IMG/VR virus record: IMGVR_UViG_3300025437_000009
Strand: one strand, 5' to 3'
Length of the DNA: 64,000 bases
Origin: a virus
Taxonomy: Duplodnaviria > Caudoviricetes
The notes beneath the pieces are model-generated. The model saw only the letters and a program-made list of their open reading frames with translations. It did not search any database and was not told where the DNA came from. The position numbers and the translations under genes were made by a program. The stretch's first letter is position 1. Each line of letters begins with the position of its first letter. Shown one piece after another: positions 6,528 to 58,733 of this stretch.

Positions 6528-7184
6528 ATGTCAAACATTTCACGACTCATTTCTTTTGGTTCTAGTCCTATAGCTGGCTTTGATCTTCCTGTGGCAAATT
6601 CATCATTTGCAAATATTATAGCACAACGATTGGGTTTAAGCTACCTTTGTCTTGCTAAAGCAATAGCATCAAATACCAAAATTGTTCGCAAGATTGTAAC
6701 CTATGATGGCTATGCCAACGATGCTGTAATAGTCATGTGGACCAGCGTAAATCGATATGAGTTTAAAACCATGCAAGGCTGGCGCAACTATGCACAAATG
6801 GACGCTGACAAGTCTGGGTCAAATTTTATAAAAGAATGGTTTGCGGGACCAGCTAGTTTAGAATACACAGAACTGTTTACTAGTCTTAAAGAGATTCTGT
6901 TGGCACAACAATTTTTAGAATCTCGATCGATACCTTATGTATTTTTAATTGACAATGATCAAATACCTGCGAGTCGTACTTTTAATTCCGATGATTTGTA
7001 CATCAATAATTTAAAAGGTATGATTAACTGGGATAAGTTTTTGACCTTCGACAATCAAGGATTCATGCCCTGGGCGAGATCTAAAGGATTTGAATTTACA
7101 TCAACCTCAAGTCCCCACCCAAGCACAGATGCACATCAGGCCGCGGCTGAATATGTTCTTGCTAGTGGGAAAGTAACATTCTAG
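6528..7184 (+). CDS. SGNH/GDSL-like hydrolase-fold protein
   Basis: N-terminal LISFGSS and C-terminal HPSTDAH. TAAATA at 6517-6522 lies 5 nt before the ATG (near-leaderless). Confidence 0.5.
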   Translation: MSNISRLISFGSSPIAGFDLPVANSSFANIIAQRLGLSYLCLAKAIASNTKIVRKIVTYDGYANDAVIVMWTSVNRYEFKTMQGWRNYAQMDADKSGSNFIKEWFAGPASLEYTELFTSLKEILLAQQFLESRSIPYVFLIDNDQIPASRTFNSDDLYINNLKGMINWDKFLTFDNQGFMPWARSKGFEFTSTSSPHPSTDAHQAAAEYVLASGKVTF

Positions 7185-7455
7185 CTAGGCCCACGCTGTC
7201 TATAGTTACTAAGAAAGCATAGTTAGCCAGTAGGCCAAAGCTACCGCGTGTATAACAGGTCCAGGCCGCGGCACAACACCCACTGATAAAAATTGAGTAT
7301 AACGGAATAACTGGAACTGTGGGAACAGTAGCAGCAAAAATAATAGCACTGATAACGCTACAGGCCCAGCTGAATAACTCAGCGCAGAAACGCAGGGGAT
7401 ATTCCCGAAAGTCTCTGCGTATATATTCAATAGTTCCGTTAAAGATTTCTATCAA
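7162..7455 (-). CDS. small membrane protein
   Basis: Three hydrophobic segments; coupled to the upstream gene. Confidence 0.6.
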   Translation of the reverse strand: MIEIFNGTIEYIRRDFREYPLRFCAELFSWACSVISAIIFAATVPTVPVIPLYSIFISGCCAAAWTCYTRGSFGLLANYAFLVTIDSVGLARMLLSH

Positions 7456-7712
7456 AGTGTTTTACCTACTGTTTCGAGAATTGTATTCAATTCATCGTGG
7501 TCTTGATTAGTTTCACCTAGCTTAGATTTTTGTGCAATCTTAATAGCTTTTTTAAGAATAGCTGGTTTGATTTCCATTTCTTCAGCAATGGCTTTTACTG
7601 TATCGTTAAGTCCTGCATTAAGGTCTTCAATTTCTTGAAGTACTGCCATACCTTCGTTGATAATTTGAGTTAGTTTTAGTTTTTGCTCATTGCTAAACAT
7701 ACGTGCTGACAT
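7452..7712 (-). CDS. dsDNA-binding protein (T4 DsbA/GapR-like)
   Basis: 86 aa helical protein with AIAEEMEIKPAILKKAIKIA; preceded by an SD and promoter-like elements. Confidence 0.6.
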   Translation of the reverse strand: MSARMFSNEQKLKLTQIINEGMAVLQEIEDLNAGLNDTVKAIAEEMEIKPAILKKAIKIAQKSKLGETNQDHDELNTILETVGKTL

Positions 7713-7785
7713 TGGAATCTCCTTGTTAATTGAATTATTATACAGTATTTAATTGTGTAGAGCAAGAGACTTTTAGAAAAATTGC

Positions 7786-7878
7786 TCACTTTAGAAAGTT
7801 TCGGGCACGACTCCGAAATGGTTCCAGGCCAGCAGCCGGCCACACCGCCGTTACAAGTAACGGGTCCTAAGGGTGTTT
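7786..7878 (-). ncRNA. candidate structured RNA downstream of the nuclease gene
   Basis: GC-rich intergenic tract with stems ACACC/GGTGT, CCGTTAC/GTAACGG, GGCC/GGCC, TTTCGG/CCGAAA. Strand uncertain. Confidence 0.45.
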
Positions 7879-8867: not shown

Positions 8868-8988
8868 GTGCGGTAACAGTACAGCGTGATGCATCAAAGA
8901 ACCCGAGGATTTCCTGTACTTCCCCTCTGGGCAACAACGAATTGGCAGACGAGCTTTGTAGTGCATCGCCGCACACTTATTTTTTTTT
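8868..8988 (+). ncRNA. candidate pseudoknotted small RNA with its own late promoter
   Basis: TATAAATA at 8856-8863. Stems GTGCGG/CCGCAC, GATGCA/TGCATC, CAAAG/CTTTG, CCC-GAGG/CCTC-GGG, and a 7-bp pseudoknot AGTACAG/CTGTACT. A T-run follows. Confidence 0.55.
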
Positions 8989-9720
8989 ACGCCCTTGGCA
9001 ATGGGCACGTTGACTAAATCCTTTTGGGTGTGAACAATCAATACTGCGTTTGTATTTTTTAGACCATTTTTCATCTAAGACTGATTCATTTTTAGAACGA
9101 CCAGATTTCATATTAGCACACCAATGATACATCTTGGCACGTTCGCCTGAGGCACGTTTGGCTTTGGCACGTAGACTGGTCACACTACCTTTACAGCTGG
9201 CGCCTGCACGTTTGACACGCCCTGGACGACTTTTGCCTTTGACCTTGCCGTCGTGAAAGTTTTCTTTTAAGAATGTATCAGCTAGTCGTTTGCACAATTC
9301 TCGTAGTTTTGCGTTGTCTGTTTCTATGCTATCGTCGTGATCTTGTGTAGGATCTTTATATCCGCAATAGACGTGCTCTATGCCTGCATCAGCAATTATA
9401 TCTTCACAACTTTCGCCAGACCGGTCATTCATTGGACGATTACAAGGACTTAAGGTAGTAACAATTATACATTCTGGAGTAATATCACCGTAAGCATCAA
9501 TGGCTGCACGTTCAGCATGTACATATTTGTCATCAATTTTATAACTAGTACGGCAAACTTTTTGACCTTCGGGACCTAATACACAAGCACCAACCATGCC
9601 ATAATGGTCATTGTCTTTTTCTTGATTGTCAAGAACTAACTCGCATAATTCAGCAAGTATAGCATCTAATTCTTCTCGGGGATCACTAGACGGGGCTGTA
9701 AGGATTTCTTGGATAATCAC
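8977..9720 (-). CDS. zinc-dependent deaminase (RibD/cytidine deaminase fold) fused to basic Cys-containing modules
   Basis: Motifs HAERAA and TTLSPC...C. C-terminal basic modules are separated by ...ESVLDE. Confidence 0.75.
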   Translation of the reverse strand: MIIQEILTAPSSDPREELDAILAELCELVLDNQEKDNDHYGMVGACVLGPEGQKVCRTSYKIDDKYVHAERAAIDAYGDITPECIIVTTLSPCNRPMNDRSGESCEDIIADAGIEHVYCGYKDPTQDHDDSIETDNAKLRELCKRLADTFLKENFHDGKVKGKSRPGRVKRAGASCKGSVTSLRAKAKRASGERAKMYHWCANMKSGRSKNESVLDEKWSKKYKRSIDCSHPKGFSQRAHCQGRKKK

Positions 9721-10958: not shown

Positions 10959-11444
10959 TTATTCCTTGTTTGGTACGCAGTTATTTACACGCACTCCACC
11001 TTTGACTTTGGTCTTAGGTGTGCCAATGTGTTTGCCTGACCAGCACTTAGGATCTAATCGTGTTTTAGTTGCTTTCGCTTCAGTTAATACTTGATTGTAC
11101 CATGTCATGGCATTTTCTAACATAACCATTAGATCCTGCACCGATTCGCAATGCCACTTGCGTAGAGCTTTGTTGATACGGCTGTTTGGATCACGTTTAG
11201 TTTTTGCACCAGCACGATGTTTCTTCATGCCCTTCATTCGAGCACAAAAACTCTTACGACGCTTAGAGGCTTTTGACCCCTTCTTTAACTTGCTAGGTTT
11301 TGTAGTAACGGCAGTCTGTAGTTTAGAGCCAGGATGACTACGGCGATAAGACGCAACACCCTTTTTATTTAGGCCGCCATTTTTGTTTTTGCCTTTACTG
11401 GTTTGCCAGGCTTCAGCTTCTACAACAAAATCTGAACTTTTCAT
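10959..11444 (-). CDS. basic modular protein, probable internal head protein
   Basis: Lys-rich module GGLNKKG...RRKSFCARM and terminal CW...NNCVP module, of a kind seen in T4-like phages. Confidence 0.6.
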   Translation of the reverse strand: MKSSDFVVEAEAWQTSKGKNKNGGLNKKGVASYRRSHPGSKLQTAVTTKPSKLKKGSKASKRRKSFCARMKGMKKHRAGAKTKRDPNSRINKALRKWHCESVQDLMVMLENAMTWYNQVLTEAKATKTRLDPKCWSGKHIGTPKTKVKGGVRVNNCVPNKE

Positions 11445-11445
11445 A

Positions 11446-13500
11446 TTACTTGATGCTTTCTTTTAATTCGTCAACTAAACTATTTAGTTTTTTGCTTTTT
11501 TCGTTCTGTAGCTTAGTCCAGTAGTCGGTGGATTCATCTACATGTTTAGGTTTCTTATGTGCCTTCTTCATAGCAATAGCAATAGCGGCCTGCTGTGCTG
11601 GGCTACCAGCTTCTTTCATAATAGGCATAAGTGTAATTTTATCCGCTTTGGTTTTGTCGCCCTGATTATATAACTTCTTCTTCCAGTTATCGTGGAATTG
11701 ACGAGCTTGTTCATAGTAGTCAAATTGTTTAACAGGTTTACCAGCTAGACAAACAGCATATGGTTCTACTTTTTTAAAGTCTTGATATCCCTCTGCTACA
11801 CCCTGTTTTAATTTGCGTTCATAATCAGCTATAATCTCATTGCGATATTGTGGACTTTGTGCAATAGCACGATTGATATGATCAGGATATACAGGAGTCT
11901 TGGCTTGTCGGTTTACTACTGCATGGTGACGTGGATCTGGATCATCTTCCCATTCGCCATCATCAAAATCATTTTCAAATTTCATATTACCACCAATTGG
12001 ACTTGCGCTATCGTTAGCCATAAAGTCATTACTGTCTTCATCAACACCTGTTAATGCTATCACAGGATCTGCACTTTCTTTAGCCCATTGATCGTGCTCG
12101 CTTGACCAGTCGTTTGTACCATCATACCAACTGTCTTCTTCAAGTCCAACCATTGTATACTTGTTAGCAGGATCTCTAACACCAATCTGCATGCCAGGAT
12201 ATTTGTTTTTGATAGCCTGTGCGTGACGCTGTGCCAACTCTTGTGACTCATGCGACTTAATAGGTACCCAATCTGCTCCTACACGTTTGCATACAGTATG
12301 ATACCCTGCCGCATTAGGTACTGTAAGTCCTCGAATAGCTAGGTCTTTCATGCCGCCTTCTTCTAATTCACCTTGATTGGGATCGGATACAGGTTTAACA
12401 TAAGCGCCTTTGTTGGTAAGATATTCGTGAATAAACTGTAACAAATAACTAGGATTACCAAATAGATTTAACACTAGAGTCTTTTTAGTTTCTGAATCAG
12501 GCATTGCAGATAGGATGTCCATGACACCTTTAATCTGTTTGCGTTTGATTTTGATTGGAATCAAACTGCCCGGAGCTTCAATATCTACTGTATCGTGATT
12601 CGCTACATACGCATTGACAAATTTTTGTAAATTATCATCTGCTACTTGTTTAACAAAAGGAGTTGGGTTAACAGCTTCTGCTACCTTTTGTCCACCCACT
12701 AGACTTAATAAACTAGCCGCTTTTTGTTGTCTTGCTGTACCTAGGTCTTTTACTTTACCTGCACCAGTAGTGGGCTTTGGTTGAACAGTGGGTTGATTAG
12801 CAGCCCAATTAGTAGCTGGTTGTGTTTGATACTGAGCCAATTGTTGTTTTGGACTTACTACTCGTCCTGGTGTTTGTGTCAATTGACTAGCCATCTGACC
12901 TAGTGCAGGACTTGCAGTAGGTTCTTGAGTTGTTTGAGCAGTAGGCTCTTGTGCCGTTTGTTGAGTCTGTTGAGGCTCGGCGGCAGTTGATGATGTTCTT
13001 GGAACAATAAATGTAGGAGCTGTTCTTGTTTGTGCAGGCTTAGTTGAAGCCTTAGGAGTTCCAGTAACTGGATTAAATAAGTCTTTGGGTTTTTGTGTTA
13101 CCTTAGGTTCTTCTCCACGCTCAATATCCTGTGCAGCACGTGCTTGCTCGGGCGGTGTAAGATCCATACCGGCAACTTTTTGTGTAAAGTCTTGGAAACG
13201 ACGTTCTTTGTCTTGTACAAACTTGTTAGTAGAATCGATCTGTTTATATAAATCTTTTTCTTGTTTTTGCAGTTGATCAATTTGTTGTTGCTGTTGTTGA
13301 TTTAACTGATCAGTTTTCCAACTGTGCGCCGCCAGGGCTTCTACATCATTAGCACCGGGATATTCTTTACGTGCAGCATCAATGGCCTTGCGAGTATCTG
13401 CATACTTAGTAGTTTTATAAAGATCTTTATCCTGAGATTTCTTTGCGCTAGCTTTTGCTTCTGCAAAGGTCAATGGATTAACTAAGTCGTACAAATTCAT
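11446..13500 (-). CDS. large modular low-complexity protein, probable internal head polyprotein
   Basis: Coiled coil, Q/T/P-rich linker, and modules separated by VAEA, LEEG, LEED, QGVAEG, KEAG, VDES. Confidence 0.65.
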   Translation of the reverse strand: MNLYDLVNPLTFAEAKASAKKSQDKDLYKTTKYADTRKAIDAARKEYPGANDVEALAAHSWKTDQLNQQQQQQIDQLQKQEKDLYKQIDSTNKFVQDKERRFQDFTQKVAGMDLTPPEQARAAQDIERGEEPKVTQKPKDLFNPVTGTPKASTKPAQTRTAPTFIVPRTSSTAAEPQQTQQTAQEPTAQTTQEPTASPALGQMASQLTQTPGRVVSPKQQLAQYQTQPATNWAANQPTVQPKPTTGAGKVKDLGTARQQKAASLLSLVGGQKVAEAVNPTPFVKQVADDNLQKFVNAYVANHDTVDIEAPGSLIPIKIKRKQIKGVMDILSAMPDSETKKTLVLNLFGNPSYLLQFIHEYLTNKGAYVKPVSDPNQGELEEGGMKDLAIRGLTVPNAAGYHTVCKRVGADWVPIKSHESQELAQRHAQAIKNKYPGMQIGVRDPANKYTMVGLEEDSWYDGTNDWSSEHDQWAKESADPVIALTGVDEDSNDFMANDSASPIGGNMKFENDFDDGEWEDDPDPRHHAVVNRQAKTPVYPDHINRAIAQSPQYRNEIIADYERKLKQGVAEGYQDFKKVEPYAVCLAGKPVKQFDYYEQARQFHDNWKKKLYNQGDKTKADKITLMPIMKEAGSPAQQAAIAIAMKKAHKKPKHVDESTDYWTKLQNEKSKKLNSLVDELKESIK

Positions 13501-52957: not shown

Positions 52958-53232
52958 AGTGATTCTACATCCTTGCAAATTAATTTGAGCCATACCAGCT
53001 CTTGCTCGTCAACTCGACCCCACGAGGTATCGGTAACGGGTCCTTTAATTAATGTAACACCATTGGCATTTTCCAACCATACTCTAGTACTATTTTTAAC
53101 TGCTTCGTCGTGCCAGACCGGATTGAACATATCAGTCTTACCCGGATGCACGTCAAACTGTGCTAGGTACCGGCAGTTAGTACGTCCAAACATTTTAACA
53201 TCTCTATTAAGTTCGTAATAGTAGTTGATCAC
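52954..53232 (-). CDS. hypothetical protein
   Basis: ORF track; ends ELVWLKL. Confidence 0.6.
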   Translation of the reverse strand: MINYYYELNRDVKMFGRTNCRYLAQFDVHPGKTDMFNPVWHDEAVKNSTRVWLENANGVTLIKGPVTDTSWGRVDEQELVWLKLICKDVESL

Positions 53233-53483
53233 TCTTTAATACCTAAATACTTTAAGTTATAATATGTAAGTGCTTCGCCTTCTAGGGGTGCATAAATGCG
53301 TATCTTAAATCCCCAAGTGTTGGGATCTGAGTCACAGAAAAATACCAAATCATTACATTTAGATTTGAGCCATTTGGCTTCTTCTGACTGTTCCCATTCG
53401 TAGATGGGAAAGGCCGCATACAGGTACGGATCTTCGCAATCGCTCATGGCAATTTCTTTAACTAAAGTTCCTCTACTACCCAT
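53229..53483 (-). CDS. small protein, divergent member of the same family
   Basis: C-terminal IYAPLEGEALTYYNLKY. Confidence 0.6.
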   Translation of the reverse strand: MGSRGTLVKEIAMSDCEDPYLYAAFPIYEWEQSEEAKWLKSKCNDLVFFCDSDPNTWGFKIRIYAPLEGEALTYYNLKYLGIKE

Positions 53484-53730
53484 TGATCATTCTCCCAACA
53501 AACTCTACTGCATAGTCTTCATTGTAACGACGCACACCGCCAGTTTTTAATTGAAACATAAGCGCATCCTGTTCATCATTAAACGTAAAGTCCATCCAAT
53601 TTTCTGTAGGATGAAAACTTACCTTTTCTCCGGGCAAGCCATAGGTTTCCACAGTCCATGCAAGTAGTTCGTTCCAAGCATCGCCGTGATTGTATTCATC
53701 AGTCCAAGGTACTCTAATTGTTATCGTCAT
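53476..53730 (-). CDS. small protein, F..E.DA..F.L family
   Basis: DFTFNDEQDALMFQLK. Confidence 0.7.
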   Translation of the reverse strand: MTITIRVPWTDEYNHGDAWNELLAWTVETYGLPGEKVSFHPTENWMDFTFNDEQDALMFQLKTGGVRRYNEDYAVEFVGRMING

Positions 53731-53938
53731 TCTTTGCCTTTAACATGCGCCAAGCAAGTGGATCTCTACGTTCCCAACAACCAAAAAACTTTTTCTTTTT
53801 CTTACTATATCTAAGCCAGATGTACCAACGATCTAAACTTAATGTAAAGCCAATGCTACCAGTATCTTTATAATGATAAATGGATAGTCCAGGCTTAATG
53901 TTTTCGCCCTCGTTACGCCACTGTATCATTGTATCCAC
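53714..53938 (-). CDS. hypothetical protein
   Basis: ORF track. Confidence 0.55.
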   Translation of the reverse strand: MDTMIQWRNEGENIKPGLSIYHYKDTGSIGFTLSLDRWYIWLRYSKKKKKFFGCWERRDPLAWRMLKAKNDDNN

Positions 53939-54126
53939 CTTAGTCTGAATAGTGTTTCACTTTCTGCGTCGGGTAAATAGAACCTCCAATGATAACTGGG
54001 GAAGTCGGTCATGAAGTTCCATTTATCCGAGTCAAAATGTCTGTGACACCATCGTATAATTCGCTCAATCTGTGTTGGGGTTAGATTAGTTGTATTAAGT
54101 ACTACGCAATTTGATTTAGATTCCAT
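53926..54126 (-). CDS. small protein, F..E.DA..F.L family
   Basis: C-terminal RFYLPDAESETLFRLRW; first gene after the promoter at 54132-54160. Confidence 0.7.
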   Translation of the reverse strand: MESKSNCVVLNTTNLTPTQIERIIRWCHRHFDSDKWNFMTDFPSYHWRFYLPDAESETLFRLRWIQ

Positions 54127-54131
54127 ACACT

Positions 54132-54160
54132 ATTATAGCATATTGGCAATTATTTGTCAG
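54132..54160 (-). promoter_or_regulatory. sigma70-like early promoter
   Basis: CTGACA-17 bp-TATAAT with spacer AATAATTGCCAATATGC. Confidence 0.7.
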
Positions 54161-54557
54161 TATGTTTGAGTGTCGCCCACATTTGCTTTTGTTCCAAAAA
54201 TTTTAGTTCAAGTTCTCGGTAACGGTCAGCACAGGCCTTGAGTTCGTCAAACTCCTGCTCCAATACAGCGTTTCTTTTGATTCGTGTGGGGATCATTAGT
54301 TCGTCTCGGATGGTCTGCATGGTTTCTCGGAGACTTAGACCATCAAGTTCAATATCTTGTTCGGATATTTTGACTTTTGGTTGCTTGTCATAGTAAGGAG
54401 TTGCAGTGGTTGTCCAAATTGGGTTTGCTCCAGTTGCAGTAGTATAAACTAATCCGCTACCATTTCCTCCCGTTATGGTCACGTTACCGTAACTTGACCC
54501 GGCCAAGCCTGCAGCAGTGACCGGAATTGTAGTTTTGTATGTTGGTGTTTTGGCCAT
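54150..54557 (-). CDS. hypothetical protein
   Basis: T/G-rich N-terminus and coiled-coil C-terminus. Confidence 0.65.
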   Translation of the reverse strand: MAKTPTYKTTIPVTAAGLAGSSYGNVTITGGNGSGLVYTTATGANPIWTTTATPYYDKQPKVKISEQDIELDGLSLRETMQTIRDELMIPTRIKRNAVLEQEFDELKACADRYRELELKFLEQKQMWATLKHTDK

Positions 54558-54559
54558 AA

Positions 54560-54592
54560 AAAATCCTTATACGGTTAAGTATAAGGACTTTT
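54560..54592 (-). terminator. hairpin terminator overlapping a promoter
   Basis: TCCTTATAC/GTATAAGGA stem then TTTTT on the minus strand; TTGACA at 54601-54606. Confidence 0.55.
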
Positions 54593-54609
54593 CATGGTGT
54601 TGTCAATCG

Positions 54610-54715
54610 TTAGCTATTCAAAACTTTTGCCACACTATTCATTACTGATGCAATACGACCAATGTCACGCAAGTTTTCTACTGTGTAGCCTTCTTGCTTG
54701 AGTGTGTCAATGAGC
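54610..54715 (-). pseudogene. ahpD: orphaned duplicate of the ahpD 3' end
   Basis: Translates DTLKQEGYTVENLRDIGRIASVMNSVAKVLNS*, 26/32 identical to the intact AhpD C-terminus; no start codon. Confidence 0.9.
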
Positions 54716-55559
54716 CTTCCGCCACACCTTGCTCTACGCTTTCTTTCACTCCGAGTTTATCAATGATATACTTGCAACTTGATGCAGAAGTATTGATGAA
54801 ACCCATGAACATTGGCCTATCATCTTTCATCATTGGCATTATATTTTTAACAAAAGATCGTGCAGTTTCTTGGGTATAATTTGGAGGAAGTCCAACATAA
54901 TTGGCTAAAGCAGTCGATGCTTTGTATGATTTATTTGAATACTCCTCTAACATATTCATAAAACCATCATCTCTCGGTTGAGTATTTTTGAATACTCCTT
55001 TTGCCATTTCAAAAGTTCCAAAGCATTCCGCAGTAATTTTTGCCATTTCTCTGTAATCAGAATCGGCGACCGCTTGCTTAGCCGCACCTAATCCGATTGC
55101 GCCAACAGCCGCCGCACCCAAGCCTTTCAAAAATCCTCTACGGTCAATTTCATCTAACTGTGCTTCCGCCACACCTTGCTGTCCTTGGACAGGGCTGTCT
55201 CTAAGTGCATCTCGATAAAACTCTTTGAAATCTTGTGCCAATTCTCTTGCTGACCACGCCCAAGTTTGACTGTCCCAATCGTCTGTCATCTCAGCTTCAA
55301 GTTTAGTACTCGGGTCTCGACCACGACTAAACCCTATACGAACAGTATGTTCAATTTGTTTATTAACCAACTTTGCAAATAGTTTGCCATTGGGATTTGG
55401 ATTAATTGTTACTTTATATCCGTGTTTTTCAGCAAACTGTATCGTTGGCTGTAAGAACTGGATTTTAGGATCAACAACACCAGCTTGGGCTGGAATATCT
55501 TCCGCCACCGGAGTCTGTGCGGTTTCTATTAAGTTAATGTAATCTCTAAGTGTTTTCAT
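54678..55559 (-). CDS. modular probable internal head protein with an internal Tat signal peptide
   Basis: Start MKTLRDYINLIE after TAAATA (55567-55572); QGVAEAQLDEIDRRGFLKGLGAAAVGAIGLGAAKQAVA; ends QGVAEG plus a tail borrowed from the ahpD remnant. Confidence 0.8.
   Translation of the reverse strand: MKTLRDYINLIETAQTPVAEDIPAQAGVVDPKIQFLQPTIQFAEKHGYKVTINPNPNGKLFAKLVNKQIEHTVRIGFSRGRDPSTKLEAEMTDDWDSQTWAWSARELAQDFKEFYRDALRDSPVQGQQGVAEAQLDEIDRRGFLKGLGAAAVGAIGLGAAKQAVADSDYREMAKITAECFGTFEMAKGVFKNTQPRDDGFMNMLEEYSNKSYKASTALANYVGLPPNYTQETARSFVKNIMPMMKDDRPMFMGFINTSASSCKYIIDKLGVKESVEQGVAEGSLTHSSKKATQ
54716..55180. repeat. 18-bp perfect direct repeat CTTCCGCCACACCTTGCT
   Basis: Copies at 54716-54733 and 55163-55180; 10-bp core again at 55499-55508. 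Confidence 0.9.
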
Positions 55560-55633
55560 AATGTAGTATTTATTCCTTGTTCTTACAGTTATCGCCGTGC
55601 CAACATAAGATCGATCTCTCATAGAAATATTTA

Positions 55634-56149
55634 TCAACTATTCAACACCTTTGCTACACTATTCATTACTGCCGCTATTCTGCCGATGTCTCTCAACTGC
55701 TCAACAGTATACCCCATCTTTTTTAATCCATTATAATGGGCCGAGACACAGAACTTGCATTTTCCAACAATGCTTGCGGCAAGGCTATATGCCTCAAATC
55801 GTTCTTTAGTCGTACCACCGTGGGTTGTGATTGCGTTCATTCTGAGTTGAGCCGGAAGACCTTTAAGGTTAGCATCTTCTGCCATCTCTACATATGGATA
55901 CCAAGTGTTGTTCATCGACATCAAAGATGCGGCAGTGAGTGCGGCATCTCGCTCTTGTGAGTTTTCCATAGAACTTTGAATAAAGGTAACTAATTTCCCG
56001 TTACCTGTGCTCATTGCGGCGGCCAGCGCACAACCTTCTGCTTCCTCAACTGCTAGAGTACTACGCTTAATAACAGCGTCCAAGTTCAACTTAGTGTCCT
56101 TGGCGTACTCAGGCAGACCTTCTTTAAGTTGATCTACCCAGGCAGTCAT
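55634..56149 (-). CDS. ahpD: alkyl hydroperoxide reductase AhpD
   Basis: LPEYAKD.KLNL, MSMNN.WY, GKCKFCVSAH (CxxC); TAATG coupling to ahpC. Confidence 0.92.
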   Translation of the reverse strand: MTAWVDQLKEGLPEYAKDTKLNLDAVIKRSTLAVEEAEGCALAAAMSTGNGKLVTFIQSSMENSQERDAALTAASLMSMNNTWYPYVEMAEDANLKGLPAQLRMNAITTHGGTTKERFEAYSLAASIVGKCKFCVSAHYNGLKKMGYTVEQLRDIGRIAAVMNSVAKVLNS

Positions 56150-56688
56150 TATAAAGTCTCTCCGCCAACTGTACGGTTGCAAGCACATAGTTCGCCAGTT
56201 TGAAGTGCGTCAAGAATACGCAAAGTTTCTTCAGGGCTACGACCTACGTCCAAGTTGTTTACAGTAACGTGTTGGATTGTGTTGTCTGGATCAACAATGA
56301 ATGTAGCGCGAAGTGCCGCACCAGCTGGAGCATAGAATACGCCCAACTGCTCTGCCAAGCTCAACTCACCACGCTGTGTATCAGCAAATTGGTTGTGCTT
56401 GATGTTGATCAAGTCTGGATGGCTCTTCTGCCATGCGATCTTACAGAACTCATTGTCTGTTGAACCTGTTAGCAATACTGCGTCACGGTCTTCAAAGTCT
56501 TGATTCAATTTGTCGTATGCTACGATTTCTGTAGGACATACAAATGTAAAGTCCTTAGGGTAGAATACGATTACTTTCCATTTACCTTCAAAAGAAGTTT
56601 CATCAATGTTGAAGAAAGCATCTTCTGGTTGGCCTGGCTTAACGCCTGTTACTACAAAGTGTTCTAATTTATCACCGATTGTTTTCAT
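56149..56688 (-). CDS. ahpC: 2-Cys peroxiredoxin AhpC
   Basis: FYPKDFTFVCPTE, RATFIVDP, GRSPEETLRILDALQTGELCAC. Confidence 0.95.
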   Translation of the reverse strand: MKTIGDKLEHFVVTGVKPGQPEDAFFNIDETSFEGKWKVIVFYPKDFTFVCPTEIVAYDKLNQDFEDRDAVLLTGSTDNEFCKIAWQKSHPDLINIKHNQFADTQRGELSLAEQLGVFYAPAGAALRATFIVDPDNTIQHVTVNNLDVGRSPEETLRILDALQTGELCACNRTVGGETL

Positions 56689-56715
56689 TTTGATTTCCTT
56701 TAAGTTAATATGAAA

Positions 56716-57366
56716 TTACTTTTGTGAATTGCAGTTATAGCAAATCACTTCTAAATTGTCTTCTACGTTATTGTAGATGTCGTTGTCCCATTGTGTTACA
56801 GTTAACGGTGCTGGACGACCTTGCCATTCTGTAATACCGCAGGTTTCACATTTATGACCACGCTTTTGGATAATATAATCTTGGATATAGTCCGGAACAG
56901 TTTTCCAGTTATATACACTACAATCGCTCATCCATTCTTCAATTCTTTTTTCACTAAGTAATTTTTTTCTATGATTTTGCTGGCACTGATTGTTACAATA
57001 TTTGCTTTGATACGATCCGCCTCTTACAGGATTTTCTCTGTTACAGAATAAACAGTTGAATATAATTTGTCTAGAATTTAACATGTCAATTGCGTTATGA
57101 GATAATCCTTCTCCGCCTGGAGTTTTATTGTGTAATATTCCTGTATTGTTATTTTTTCTTCCATACTCGGCTATTAATTGTTTTTCTAAATTAAACGCTT
57201 CGTCTTCGCTTAAGTTATCTTTATAGAATACAATTCTATTTTTGTCCTCCGGTGGATGAACACTTCTTCCATAACATCTTGTAGCTCGACCGTTGCGACC
57301 TTTGCCGATATAGTACGGAGTACCATCTTCTCTTAAATACCCGTAAACGTAAAAATCATTAATCAT
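56716..57366 (-). CDS. free-standing homing-type endonuclease: GIY-YIG-like domain plus degenerate HNH
   Basis: FYVYGY...PYYIGKG...R; CLFC...CNNQC zinc motif; CETC...NN..DNLEVICYNCNS lacking the canonical His residues. Confidence 0.7.
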   Translation of the reverse strand: MINDFYVYGYLREDGTPYYIGKGRNGRATRCYGRSVHPPEDKNRIVFYKDNLSEDEAFNLEKQLIAEYGRKNNNTGILHNKTPGGEGLSHNAIDMLNSRQIIFNCLFCNRENPVRGGSYQSKYCNNQCQQNHRKKLLSEKRIEEWMSDCSVYNWKTVPDYIQDYIIQKRGHKCETCGITEWQGRPAPLTVTQWDNDIYNNVEDNLEVICYNCNSQK

Positions 57367-57506
57367 TTTGATTAGCCATTTAATATTTTAAAACCAACTC
57401 TTATTTTTTGTGATGCTTTTAAAGCACTCTTATTTTTACTTATTGCTTTATAGCAACCAATTATATACGTAGATAATGGTTTTGTCAAAGATTTTGGTAA
57501 AACTGA

Positions 57507-58340
57507 TTAAAGTTCTATGTTGAACTCATCGGCACGGAATTGATCAGCACGTTCTTCGTAGAGATAGTAGCCCCGTGGGTTACATATCACACGAGTGTTG
57601 CCAATCATATAGTCAAACATAGTATGAGTATGTCCGTGAGTCCATAATATGATCTGTGAGTGATCTAATATAAAATTGCTTAGGTCACTGGCATAAGCGC
57701 CATTGGTCAATCGGTCACTCTGATACTGAGGAGCGATACTAGCCATGCTCGGTGCATGATGAGTTACTACTACATATTTTTTAGTAGGATCGTTTTCTAC
57801 TACAGATCTAATATAAGACAATGAACGATAGTGTGTTTCCACAGTTTTCTCTGGAGTAAGTCTGTGATAGACATTCTTAACTTCATTAAACATAGTGATC
57901 TGACGATAGTCGTTCATCATTGAACGCATCTGGTACATAGTAAGATCATCCATCTTGTTCATGTCAGTCCATAAGGTAGCACCAACAAACACTACGTCAT
58001 CGATAGTGTGTGTTTGATCCTCGAGCAGGGTAACATTCTCAGGCAAGTTAGCGGCAATATGTGCATAGGTTTTTTGAAATTGAAAACCATAGTGTTCGTG
58101 ATTGCCCATGACCATAACAACTTCGCGATATTTTTTACACTCTTCATTAAAGAAACGTGCATAACGATCGGGACGTTTGAGTGGATCTTCTTTGGGTAGC
58201 AGGACCATGTCTGGGTTATACATGTCTTGTTTTAGATGACGTGCTTCGCAGATATCGCCAGACAGAATTAGTACGTCACCGCCGGGTAAGGTAAGGTCAG
58301 CAAAATCGAGGTGGAGGTCAGAAATGACATTAATTTTCAT
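57507..58340 (-). CDS. calcineurin-like metallophosphoesterase
   Basis: SDLH, GDI, GNHE, THHAP, HGHTH, NPRGY. Confidence 0.9.
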   Translation of the reverse strand: MKINVISDLHLDFADLTLPGGDVLILSGDICEARHLKQDMYNPDMVLLPKEDPLKRPDRYARFFNEECKKYREVVMVMGNHEHYGFQFQKTYAHIAANLPENVTLLEDQTHTIDDVVFVGATLWTDMNKMDDLTMYQMRSMMNDYRQITMFNEVKNVYHRLTPEKTVETHYRSLSYIRSVVENDPTKKYVVVTHHAPSMASIAPQYQSDRLTNGAYASDLSNFILDHSQIILWTHGHTHTMFDYMIGNTRVICNPRGYYLYEERADQFRADEFNIEL

Positions 58341-58364
58341 ATAGTAATTATACTACAGAATAAA

Positions 58365-58733
58365 TTACCAGTCAATGAATCTTTTTTGGCTGACTAGCCA
58401 ACCGATGCTATTTATGTCCGATTCAATTTCTTCGGTCACATAGCTTTCTTCTACAAATCCAGTGAAATCAGTACCAGAGAATCCAGTACCCGAACAATAC
58501 CAATCTATATAACTGTCATCTTCTCGAATTTCGGCAATCAAAGTAGCCGCATAACTCCAGGAACAGTCCCAATGAATATTTGATAAAATACCCCAAACAT
58601 CCTTGGGTTGGTATTGATTGTTGCATAATGCCGCATAGAAATTTTGAGCATAGATTTCTTGCTTGCGGATTTTGGTTATGATCCAATCCGTACTTCTAAC
58701 ATCACGTTCTAAGTTATAAACCTTGCGTGGCAT
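58365..58733 (-). CDS. hypothetical protein, paralog of 61038-61415
   Basis: YAQNFYAALCN...CSW...YIDWYCSG; likely start MPRKVY. Confidence 0.7.
   Translation of the reverse strand: MPRKVYNLERDVRSTDWIITKIRKQEIYAQNFYAALCNNQYQPKDVWGILSNIHWDCSWSYAATLIAEIREDDSYIDWYCSGTGFSGTDFTGFVEESYVTEEIESDINSIGWLVSQKRFIDW

Follow-up and report, generated by a model that had tools for sequence, protein, structure and literature searches.

How did the 3' end of ahpD come to lie twice in a viral genome, with a repeat-bearing gene between the two copies? The question is raised by the window analyzed here, a 64-kb stretch (64,000 nucleotides) of the IMG/VR virus record IMGVR_UViG_3300025437_000009, to which all coordinates refer. 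Between an intact ahpD and a second copy of its 3' end lies gene X, an open reading frame (ORF) of 293 amino acids that contains an exact 18-nucleotide (nt) direct repeat encoding a QGVAE linker. The original prediction ascribed the whole arrangement to this repeat, acting both as a crossover site and as a protease linker in an integron-style system of cassette addition. Our comparisons favor, with a probability of about 0.65, two overlapping processes, in which an HNH homing endonuclease would have left a scar in ahpD and cassettes would have been inserted at the linker of a late gene of the phage T4 "internal protein" type. Judging from the alignments of related contigs, linker-mediated cassette gain is real at this locus and widespread. 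It apparently has not been described before, and we did not find the GVAE linker described in the literature.

Organization of the Locus

The minus strand carries all genes at the locus, in the order endonuclease-like gene, ahpC, ahpD, gene X, the ahpD 3' repeat stretch, and an unrelated 135-amino acid gene. The features are listed below.

56149–56688, minus: ahpC (peroxiredoxin; Pfam AhpC-TSA, E 6e-22), kept with ahpD in 34 viral contigs
55634–56188, minus: intact ahpD with CxxC motif and a 3' end of the endonuclease-linked type (Pfam CMD, E 1.5e-11)
55605–55622, minus: 5' stump of an HNH homing-endonuclease gene, first 6 codons (MRDRSY), collinear with the start of the intact HNH gene in L012, L013, and L170
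55570–55604, minus: 3' stump of the HNH gene (WHGDNCKNKE-stop), from local alignment to the L013 HNH 3' end; 93% identity to L170 13311–13416
55567–55574, minus: late-promoter-like box AATAAATA, read from the sequence, 8–15 nt upstream of the gene X start codon
54678–55559, minus: gene X, a 293-amino acid mosaic mini-polyprotein of leader, module 1, module 2 with a twin-arginine translocation (Tat) signal, and junk tail (ORF and comparisons)
55524–55559, minus: capsid-targeting-like leader MKTLRDYINLIE, DNA identical to the small gene of L170–L176
55499–55508, minus: 10-nt linker core GTGGCGGAAG (..TPVAE/D), left edge of module 1; left crossover within CCGC, a few nt upstream (sequence and alignments)
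55164–55499, minus: module 1, 112 amino acids, mobile cassette of unknown function; 90–97% nt identity to L001–L011 and L179, ending exactly at linkers
55163–55180, minus: 18-nt linker copy 1 (..QQGVAE/A; sequence and alignment)
54717–55163, minus: module 2, 149 amino acids, Tat signal followed by a predicted four-helix-bundle domain (Pfam TAT_signal, distant relatives, structure model)
54716–54733, minus: 18-nt linker copy 2 (..EQGVAE/G), probable right crossover site; identical 16–18-mer at the single linker of the L170 empty allele
54708–54716, minus: Gly-Ser-Leu codons, probable leftover of an ancestral terminal cassette (GSLEEYGD...), from comparison with L170
54610–54708, minus: ahpD 3' remnant, probably the recipient's original 3' end; 81–83% nt identity to the remnants in L012 and L170

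As originally predicted, the exact 18-mer (plus strand, CTTCCGCCACACCTTGCT) occurs at 54716–54733 and 55163–55180 and its 10-nt core also at 55499–55508. The spacing of the two full copies is 447 nt (149 codons), and these three are the only copies of the core in the 64 kb; for a 14-mer of the repeat, two matches were observed versus 0.24 expected. An ATAAATA late-promoter-like box is present upstream of gene X, and the same box also precedes the L170 and L179 genes described below; by function, this AATAAATA box would be a promoter. The view that a promoter and one gene lie between the two ahpD ends was right as to box and gene but incomplete, in that the HNH gene stumps are also found there.

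Assembly unitigs of five freshwater runs span every junction of the locus (X1 record 2, 54638–55194; X4 record 13, 54676–55522; X1 record 7, 55493–55900), and the arrangement is not an assembly artifact. A chimeric metagenome assembly joined at short repeats, a caveat attached to the original prediction, is extremely improbable. Several strains in the same lakes do carry module 1 and the ahpD 3' end, and the unitig graphs branch at 54638–54667, 55165–55194, and 55493–55522, but k = 31 unitigs from runs not flagged as source (X4 and X5) span the remnant/linker/module 2/linker/module 1 junctions and another unitig spans module 1, leader, HNH stumps, and ahpD. Moreover, the assembly word was longer than the 18-nt repeat, and related HNH-remnant and small-gene arrangements were found in independent contigs. 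Among the INPHARED phages there was no match to the locus (megablast) or to gene X (tblastn), and ahpD had a single match, in one Ralstonia phage (49%).

Empty, Filled, and Donor Alleles of Gene X

Seven IMG/VR contigs (L170–L176) carry an empty allele, a 77-amino acid gene directly after an intact HNH gene, with the same upstream box and start as gene X. In it, the leader MKTLRDYINLIETAQ is joined through a single QGVAE linker to a small terminal cassette (GSLEEYGD...), and the ahpD remnant follows the gene. A donor-type gene, standing alone at a different location in the JGI contig L179, has a related leader, TPVAE, module 1, QGVAE, and a 16-residue tail, and is 96.8% identical to window positions 55573–55165 over 410 nt, with the identity ending at the linker. 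On the left side, the window is identical to L170 through the leader and then turns to the L179 type within the 4-nt interval CCGC at the leader 3' end (alignment A2). On the right side, the module 1/module 2 and module 2/Gly-Ser-Leu junctions both fall within the identical 16–18-mer (alignment A3). The window is, by these alignments, the filled allele: the one linker of the small gene has received two modules, both in frame. The proposed role of the repeat as a crossover site is thus upheld for the in-frame cassette joint seen between the empty L170–L176 allele and the filled window allele, but the repeat does not appear to be the cause of the ahpD duplication. DNA homology of module 1 extends exactly from 55508/9 to 55163, stopping at the linkers, and elsewhere the module is found in at least six different left contexts and with at least eight different right neighbors, mostly within long polyproteins.

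The junction with the ahpD remnant lies beyond the repeat. The last repeat had been described as exactly abutting the remnant, but GCTCATTG, encoding the Gly-Ser-Leu of the ancestral small gene as in L170, separates the two, and the remnant starts at 54707/54708, 8–9 nt past the repeat. Because Gly-Ser-Leu is retained and the deletion runs to 54707/8, the remnant does not exactly abut the repeat. The junction is probably a separate ordinary deletion in which ~186 nt of the terminal cassette and ~20 nt of the remnant were lost, although the assignment is slightly ambiguous, as the GCTCATT after the third linker also resembles ahpD codons. Reading GCTCAT as the Ala-His codons of ahpD would let the remnant abut the repeat via AAGGC(T) microhomology; L170 shows the simpler Gly-Ser-Leu origin, and some ambiguity stays. 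An origin of the gene X start codon from the ahpD remnant (CATTATGAAACACT) with a target-site duplication was ruled out, since L170 and L179 share the start and the upstream box.

In the proposed course of events, the endonuclease gene would have been followed directly by an ancestral late gene in which a capsid-targeting leader preceded a single QGVAE linker and a short terminal cassette. This small gene would, in the lineage of the window, have recombined with other such genes, with the left exchange in the shared leader and the right exchange inside the identical 16–18-nt linker, so that module 1 and module 2, with its Tat signal, came to lie in frame. The original terminal cassette would have been lost later through a small deletion, by which the reading frame came to run into the ahpD remnant.

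A low-depth 61-nt unitig (runs X1 and X5; window 55524–55561), in which the gene X leader (...INLIET) is joined via six other bases to EQGVA, looks like a further one-linker (empty) small-gene allele in the same lakes. A second loose end in the X1 and X5 reads is a gene beginning MTNKS-LRDYINLIET, a variant start (MTNKS-LRDY...) for which there was no match in IMG/VR.

The ahpD Duplication

The duplication of the ahpD 3' end is itself clear: the copies share 75% nt identity over 77 nt and ~26/30 residues, and the remnant has its own stop at 54610–54612. It is read in a frame different from that of gene X, whose stop at 54678 falls within it. The ahpC-ahpD pair was recovered in 34 IMG/VR contigs, and in ten contigs (L012, L013, L015, and L170–L176) ahpD is followed by an intact HNH ORF of 228–233 amino acids, which overlaps the ahpD stop, and then by an ahpD 3' remnant. 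The intact HNH gene (L170, L012, and L013) matches Pfam HNH_3 (E 2e-10, above the cut-off) and phrog_12324, "intron-like DNA endonuclease" (E 8.5e-39). Both the endonuclease gene and the remnant are missing from contigs L016 and L017, and an uninterrupted ahpD allele with a remnant-type 3' end co-occurs in the same metagenomes and lakes (contig joints 54702→55745, the few bases between encoding K-A-H-Y-E-T), giving a presence/absence polymorphism of the HNH gene at one site. In L013, L170, and L012 the first codons of the remnant are those for C-V-K-A-H-Y, which come immediately behind the catalytic CxxC; this suggests that this point marks the HNH cut site; no linker is found at the HNH/ahpD-remnant junctions of these three contigs. 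A "SIVG" extension of the L013 remnant is probably a chance overlap with the HNH gene 3' end.

The window ahpD has 86–92% nt identity to L012, L013, and L016 up to 55605. Homology to the HNH-bearing contigs begins at the ahpC start, breaks off at 55605 after six codons of the HNH gene, and resumes at 55604–55570, which means that 634 internal bases have been lost from the HNH gene and that the window retains its first 18 nt and last 35 nt. The "promoter" stretch overlaps the old HNH stop and is largely the stop-codon region of the deleted gene. From these alignments, the ahpD duplication is most simply an ordinary HNH homing-endonuclease scar and not a product of the 18-nt repeat. The endonuclease would have entered ahpD just past the CxxC codons. 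When the cut ahpD was repaired from one side, with an endonuclease-bearing donor as template, the donor 3' end and the endonuclease gene would have been copied in and the recipient's own 3' end left stranded downstream. A later internal deletion of the endonuclease gene would have spared its first 18 nt and its last 35 nt.

The freestanding HNH homing endonucleases of T4-like phages, a comparison that covers the ahpD duplication only, likewise have an HNH ORF variably present beside or inside a conserved gene, insertion next to catalytic-motif codons, and a flanking tract of another allele type. The difference here is that the target 3' end is duplicated, as expected from one-sided homology, and that the endonuclease gene has since decayed.

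Conservation of the Linker DNA

A 15-mer motif scan recovered the linker in at least 120 viral contigs, encoded as GGT GTG GCG GAA even though GTG and GCG are rare there. Among the exact 15-mer matches listed, 175/182 are in-frame GVAE in ORFs of at least 100 amino acids. In a protein-ascertained set of 21 linkers with distinct flanks (L001–L011 and the window), Val is encoded by GTG in 18/21 versus a 9.5% background of Val codons, and Ala by GCG in 19/21 versus 7.7% of Ala codons in the same ORFs. For the remaining linker codons, GGT reaches 98% against a background of 44–50% and GAA 89%. With a codon-degenerate pattern applied to three contigs of 230–340 kb, 10 of the 12 GVAE-G sites are GGTGTGGCGGARG, all on the coding strand. 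The conserved DNA comprises AG CAA GGT GTG GCG GAA G and nothing outside it. Linker third codon positions are ~85% identical whatever the divergence of the flanking cassettes, whereas within the cassette bodies identity drops to 48–64% at matched codons for Gly, Val, Ala, and Glu. In 145 polyprotein ORFs, 42% of the internal homology ends lie within 10 nt of a linker versus 4.7% for random positions, and the junctions are seamless and sharp, 31% of them falling within 3 nt. The codon statistics indicate that clade-wide conservation of the linker DNA is not explained by protein selection alone.

The comparisons show directly how the locus is built, that empty, filled, and donor alleles exist, in which intervals the crossovers lie, that codon use in the linker is biased, and that breakpoints are enriched there; from this we infer that recombination is the cause of the DNA conservation. 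The linker DNA would serve as an identity patch for ordinary homologous or microhomology recombination that keeps the reading frame, the leader would be a second such patch, and repeated exchange would keep the linker sequence uniform. A dedicated enzyme would not be needed: the left crossover lies outside the linker, which itself contains no palindrome, and there is no recombinase close by. More tentatively, and at somewhat less than even odds, the GVAE linker may be dual-purpose throughout a clade of large T4-like phages from fresh water, a capsid-protease cut site as protein and a standardized 18-nt in-frame joint as DNA, serving a shared library of injected effectors, some with a protease-exposed Tat signal for periplasmic re-export.

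Several points weigh against the favored explanation. Most of the large linker sample (set B) was gathered with the DNA motif itself, which inflates the codon figures, and the linker-located breakpoints could partly reflect selection for intact domains and not exchange sites. An 18-nt patch is short for efficient homologous recombination. No donor or relatives of module 2 were found in IMG/VR, the JGI contigs, or a word-indexed protein database. Finally, a 684-amino acid polyprotein resident in the window (11446–13500, minus strand) has linkers, KQGVAEG and QKVAEA, that use the common codons GTA GCA; the QGVAEG near 11790 had already been noted to use other codons, and at this site, near 11800, the codons are GGT GTA GCA GAG. 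As these resident GVAE/KVAE linkers have drifted to common codons, the peptide can be kept in the absence of the DNA consensus, and DNA identity is not needed for linker function. The resident polyprotein has no Pfam or PHROG match, and several of its modules recur in polyproteins of other contigs, e.g. YQDFKKVEPYAVCLAGKPVK... and the C-terminal tail.

Alternative Explanations for the Linker

The linker DNA could be kept for a reason other than recombination, for instance because it causes a translational pause or carries an RNA-level signal where domains meet, with cassette edges coming to lie at linkers through the loss of domain-breaking recombinants. The rarity of GTG and GCG in these genomes would fit a pause, as would the weakly Shine-Dalgarno-like AAGGTG, but the 18-mer mixes rare codons with the commonest ones (GGT and GAA), which is not predicted by rare-codon pausing, and the resident linkers of the window presumably work with common codons. 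Selection for intact domains is likewise expected to leave surviving junctions near linkers; the junctions are, however, sharp and not scattered over a flexible region, and the linker sequence does not track how far the flanking cassettes have diverged. We therefore regard this explanation as unlikely, though it is the stronger of the two alternatives considered here.

Still less probable is a dedicated integron-like site-specific system, the model of the original prediction, in which a recombinase or nuclease recognizing the 18-mer both inserted the gene into ahpD and adds cassettes. Such a system might be expected from a motif of 17–18 nt that is very uniform and always on one strand in >115 contigs, and from the abundance of endonuclease genes around the locus. 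The ahpD duplication is nevertheless accounted for by the HNH gene, with linker-free junctions in L012, L013, and L170, the remnant junction of the window lies 8–9 nt past the repeat, and the left crossover of the insertion is in the leader, not the linker. No site-specific recombinase is present among the ORFs at 53000–58500 (ahpC, ahpD, gene X, small unknowns, the endonuclease-like gene, and a phosphoesterase). No attC-like palindromic site was found in the linker, where conservation is limited to ~18 nt with no self-complementarity or inverted repeat and no conserved partner. Excised circles, which the original prediction had suggested looking for, were not seen in the contig data, which are a weak test for circles.

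Predicted Processing and the Tat Signal

The reading of gene X as a T4 internal protein-type gene also bears on the protein. Its N-terminus consists of MKTLRDYINLIE followed by TPVAE, by sequence resemblance a leader of ~10–12 residues ending in hydrophobic-x-Glu, and N-termini resembling a capsid-targeting sequence (CTS) are common in GVAE-containing ORFs. The T4 leader has 10 residues, of which residues 8 and 10 direct processing (PMC9026906). A T4 gp21-family protease (Peptidase_S77) is encoded in two related large contigs, G001 and G003 (E 1e-25). Proteases of this class recognize short motifs made up of a hydrophobic or small residue, x, and Glu, and cleave behind the Glu (PMC5694885). 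The GVAE linker is thus a plausible capsid-protease site: the peptide (K/E)-Q-G-V-A-E/G would be cut after Glu by a gp21-family prohead protease, freeing each module inside the capsid for injection, and gene X would yield module 1 and a module 2 that begins a few residues before the Tat motif. Cleavage, packaging, and Tat export after injection are each what we infer from these sequence resemblances.

The Tat signal of module 2 (~55065–55151) matches Pfam TAT_signal with an E-value of 6e-4 and 20 bits, under the 22.7-bit cut-off. An exhaustive HMMER search gave two groups of distant relatives, 121-amino acid Sec-signal proteins that match the mature part, and phage proteins in which the leader or GVAE is followed at once by an RRGFLKG Tat-type signal. 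In the structure model, module 2 is a four-helix bundle with a predicted local distance difference test (pLDDT) score of 70–90 over residues 150–270; its best match in the PDB is the copper storage protein Csp1 with a Z-score of 7.7, below the meaningful level for helical bundles. The single-sequence structure model of module 1 is poor, with a pLDDT below 50. A Tat-type signal (RRGFLKG, a hydrophobic stretch, and AxA) directly after the predicted protease cut (leader ...TE/ or GVAE/) is found not only in gene X but also in at least six phage proteins unrelated to one another (P0004, P0005, and P0007–P0010). This placement suggests that injected proteins may be re-exported to the periplasm once the capsid protease unmasks the Tat signal. 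A Tat signal unmasked by a capsid protease was not found described in the literature.

Relation to Known Systems

In T4 biology it is already held that phages can load arbitrary proteins into the capsid by way of a short leader, and that the shuffling of genes is guided by conserved motifs. The locus would add a modular form of this idea, in which whole protein modules are joined by one standard coding linker, and the direct pair of before and after alleles together with the donor documents in-frame module gain at the linker. The T4 internal proteins, which are packaged and injected, have just a leader in common and are otherwise highly diverse (PMC3012670, PMC9026906, PMC12373910). Gene X resembles IPI-III in being a late gene with an N-terminal leader of ~10 residues ending in hydrophobic-x-Glu, which in T4 is cut by the gp21 prohead protease, and its left crossover in the conserved leader recalls their hyperplastic loci. 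The T4 internal proteins are, however, single-module genes, whereas here unrelated modules occupy one ORF and would be exchanged at an internal, DNA-conserved, cleavage-type motif.

In the promoter/stem-loop (PeSL) and internal protein-locus elements of T4-type phages, conserved intergenic motifs have been proposed to guide modular shuffling, which the authors liken to integrons (Arbiol et al. 2010, PMC2839356; PMC4122927). The likeness lies in short conserved motifs that flank variable ORFs and in homology-guided shuffling into "acceptable" sites. The PeSL is an intergenic promoter and stem-loop that moves genes, whereas the GVAE linker is intragenic, coding, in frame, and ~18 nt long, and would move protein modules; a PeSL-type layout was not found, as the motif lies inside ORFs (in frame in the 175 of 182 listed matches) and has no stem-loop. 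The polyvalent proteins of phages and conjugative elements are likewise multi-module mosaics that enter with the invading DNA and are thought to be processed into units, the proposed agent being a zincin-like peptidase domain within the protein itself (Iyer et al. 2017, PMC5512222). In these proteins the peptidase is embedded and no DNA-conserved linker has been described, whereas processing here would use the capsid protease at a repeated linker; no zincin-like (MPTase) or any other peptidase domain was matched by Pfam in gene X or the 684-amino acid polyprotein. The system is best filed as a variant of CTS/PeSL-type modular shuffling, differing in that the joint is coding, in frame, and internal, is likely also a cut site, and moves protein modules and not genes.

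If the prohead protease cuts the linker, these phages would inject small effectors in sets that can be re-assorted one module at a time, and the recurrent Tat signals right after predicted cut sites suggest that the injected proteins are aimed at the periplasm. Such a system, if true, would parallel exon shuffling in nature and might offer a design rule for packing cargo into phage capsids.

Plasticity of the ahpCD Neighborhood

The whole ahpCD neighborhood is, as far as the contigs compared here indicate, hyperplastic. In many other contigs, 0.6–1.5 kb is inserted in the ahpC/ahpD gap; in L170–L176 a GDSL/SGNH lipase-like ORF (L170 11695–12144, Pfam E 4e-8) lies between ahpC and ahpD and the ahpD N-terminus is replaced. 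Upstream of ahpC, a 216-amino acid ORF of the window (56716–57366, minus strand) is a second homing-endonuclease-like gene flanking ahpCD and is absent from L012–L017. Its N-terminus is GIY-YIG-like by eye, a half that matches only two PHROGs of unknown function, and for its C-terminal part the matches are HNH endonuclease PHROGs (E 4e-9). In L012 (7418–8739), a 373-amino acid protein (phrog_2615, unknown function) and an 80-amino acid ORF with an TATAAATA box in front are encoded between the HNH gene and the remnant; given this different cargo, the HNH/remnant junction has captured DNA more than once. In L016, a contig without the endonuclease gene, a 386-amino acid protein with a signal peptide lies directly downstream of ahpD (6698–7858) and appears Gram-negative porin-like from reading its sequence. 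Small basic Cys-containing modules, which include DUF6321 (Pfam E 5e-16) and a KKYK.SI.CSHPKGFSQRAHC motif, are separate genes at 10959–11444 and 8977–9720 of the window (minus strand) and are joined in one ORF in L005 (5668–6771), an arrangement that points to module reuse.

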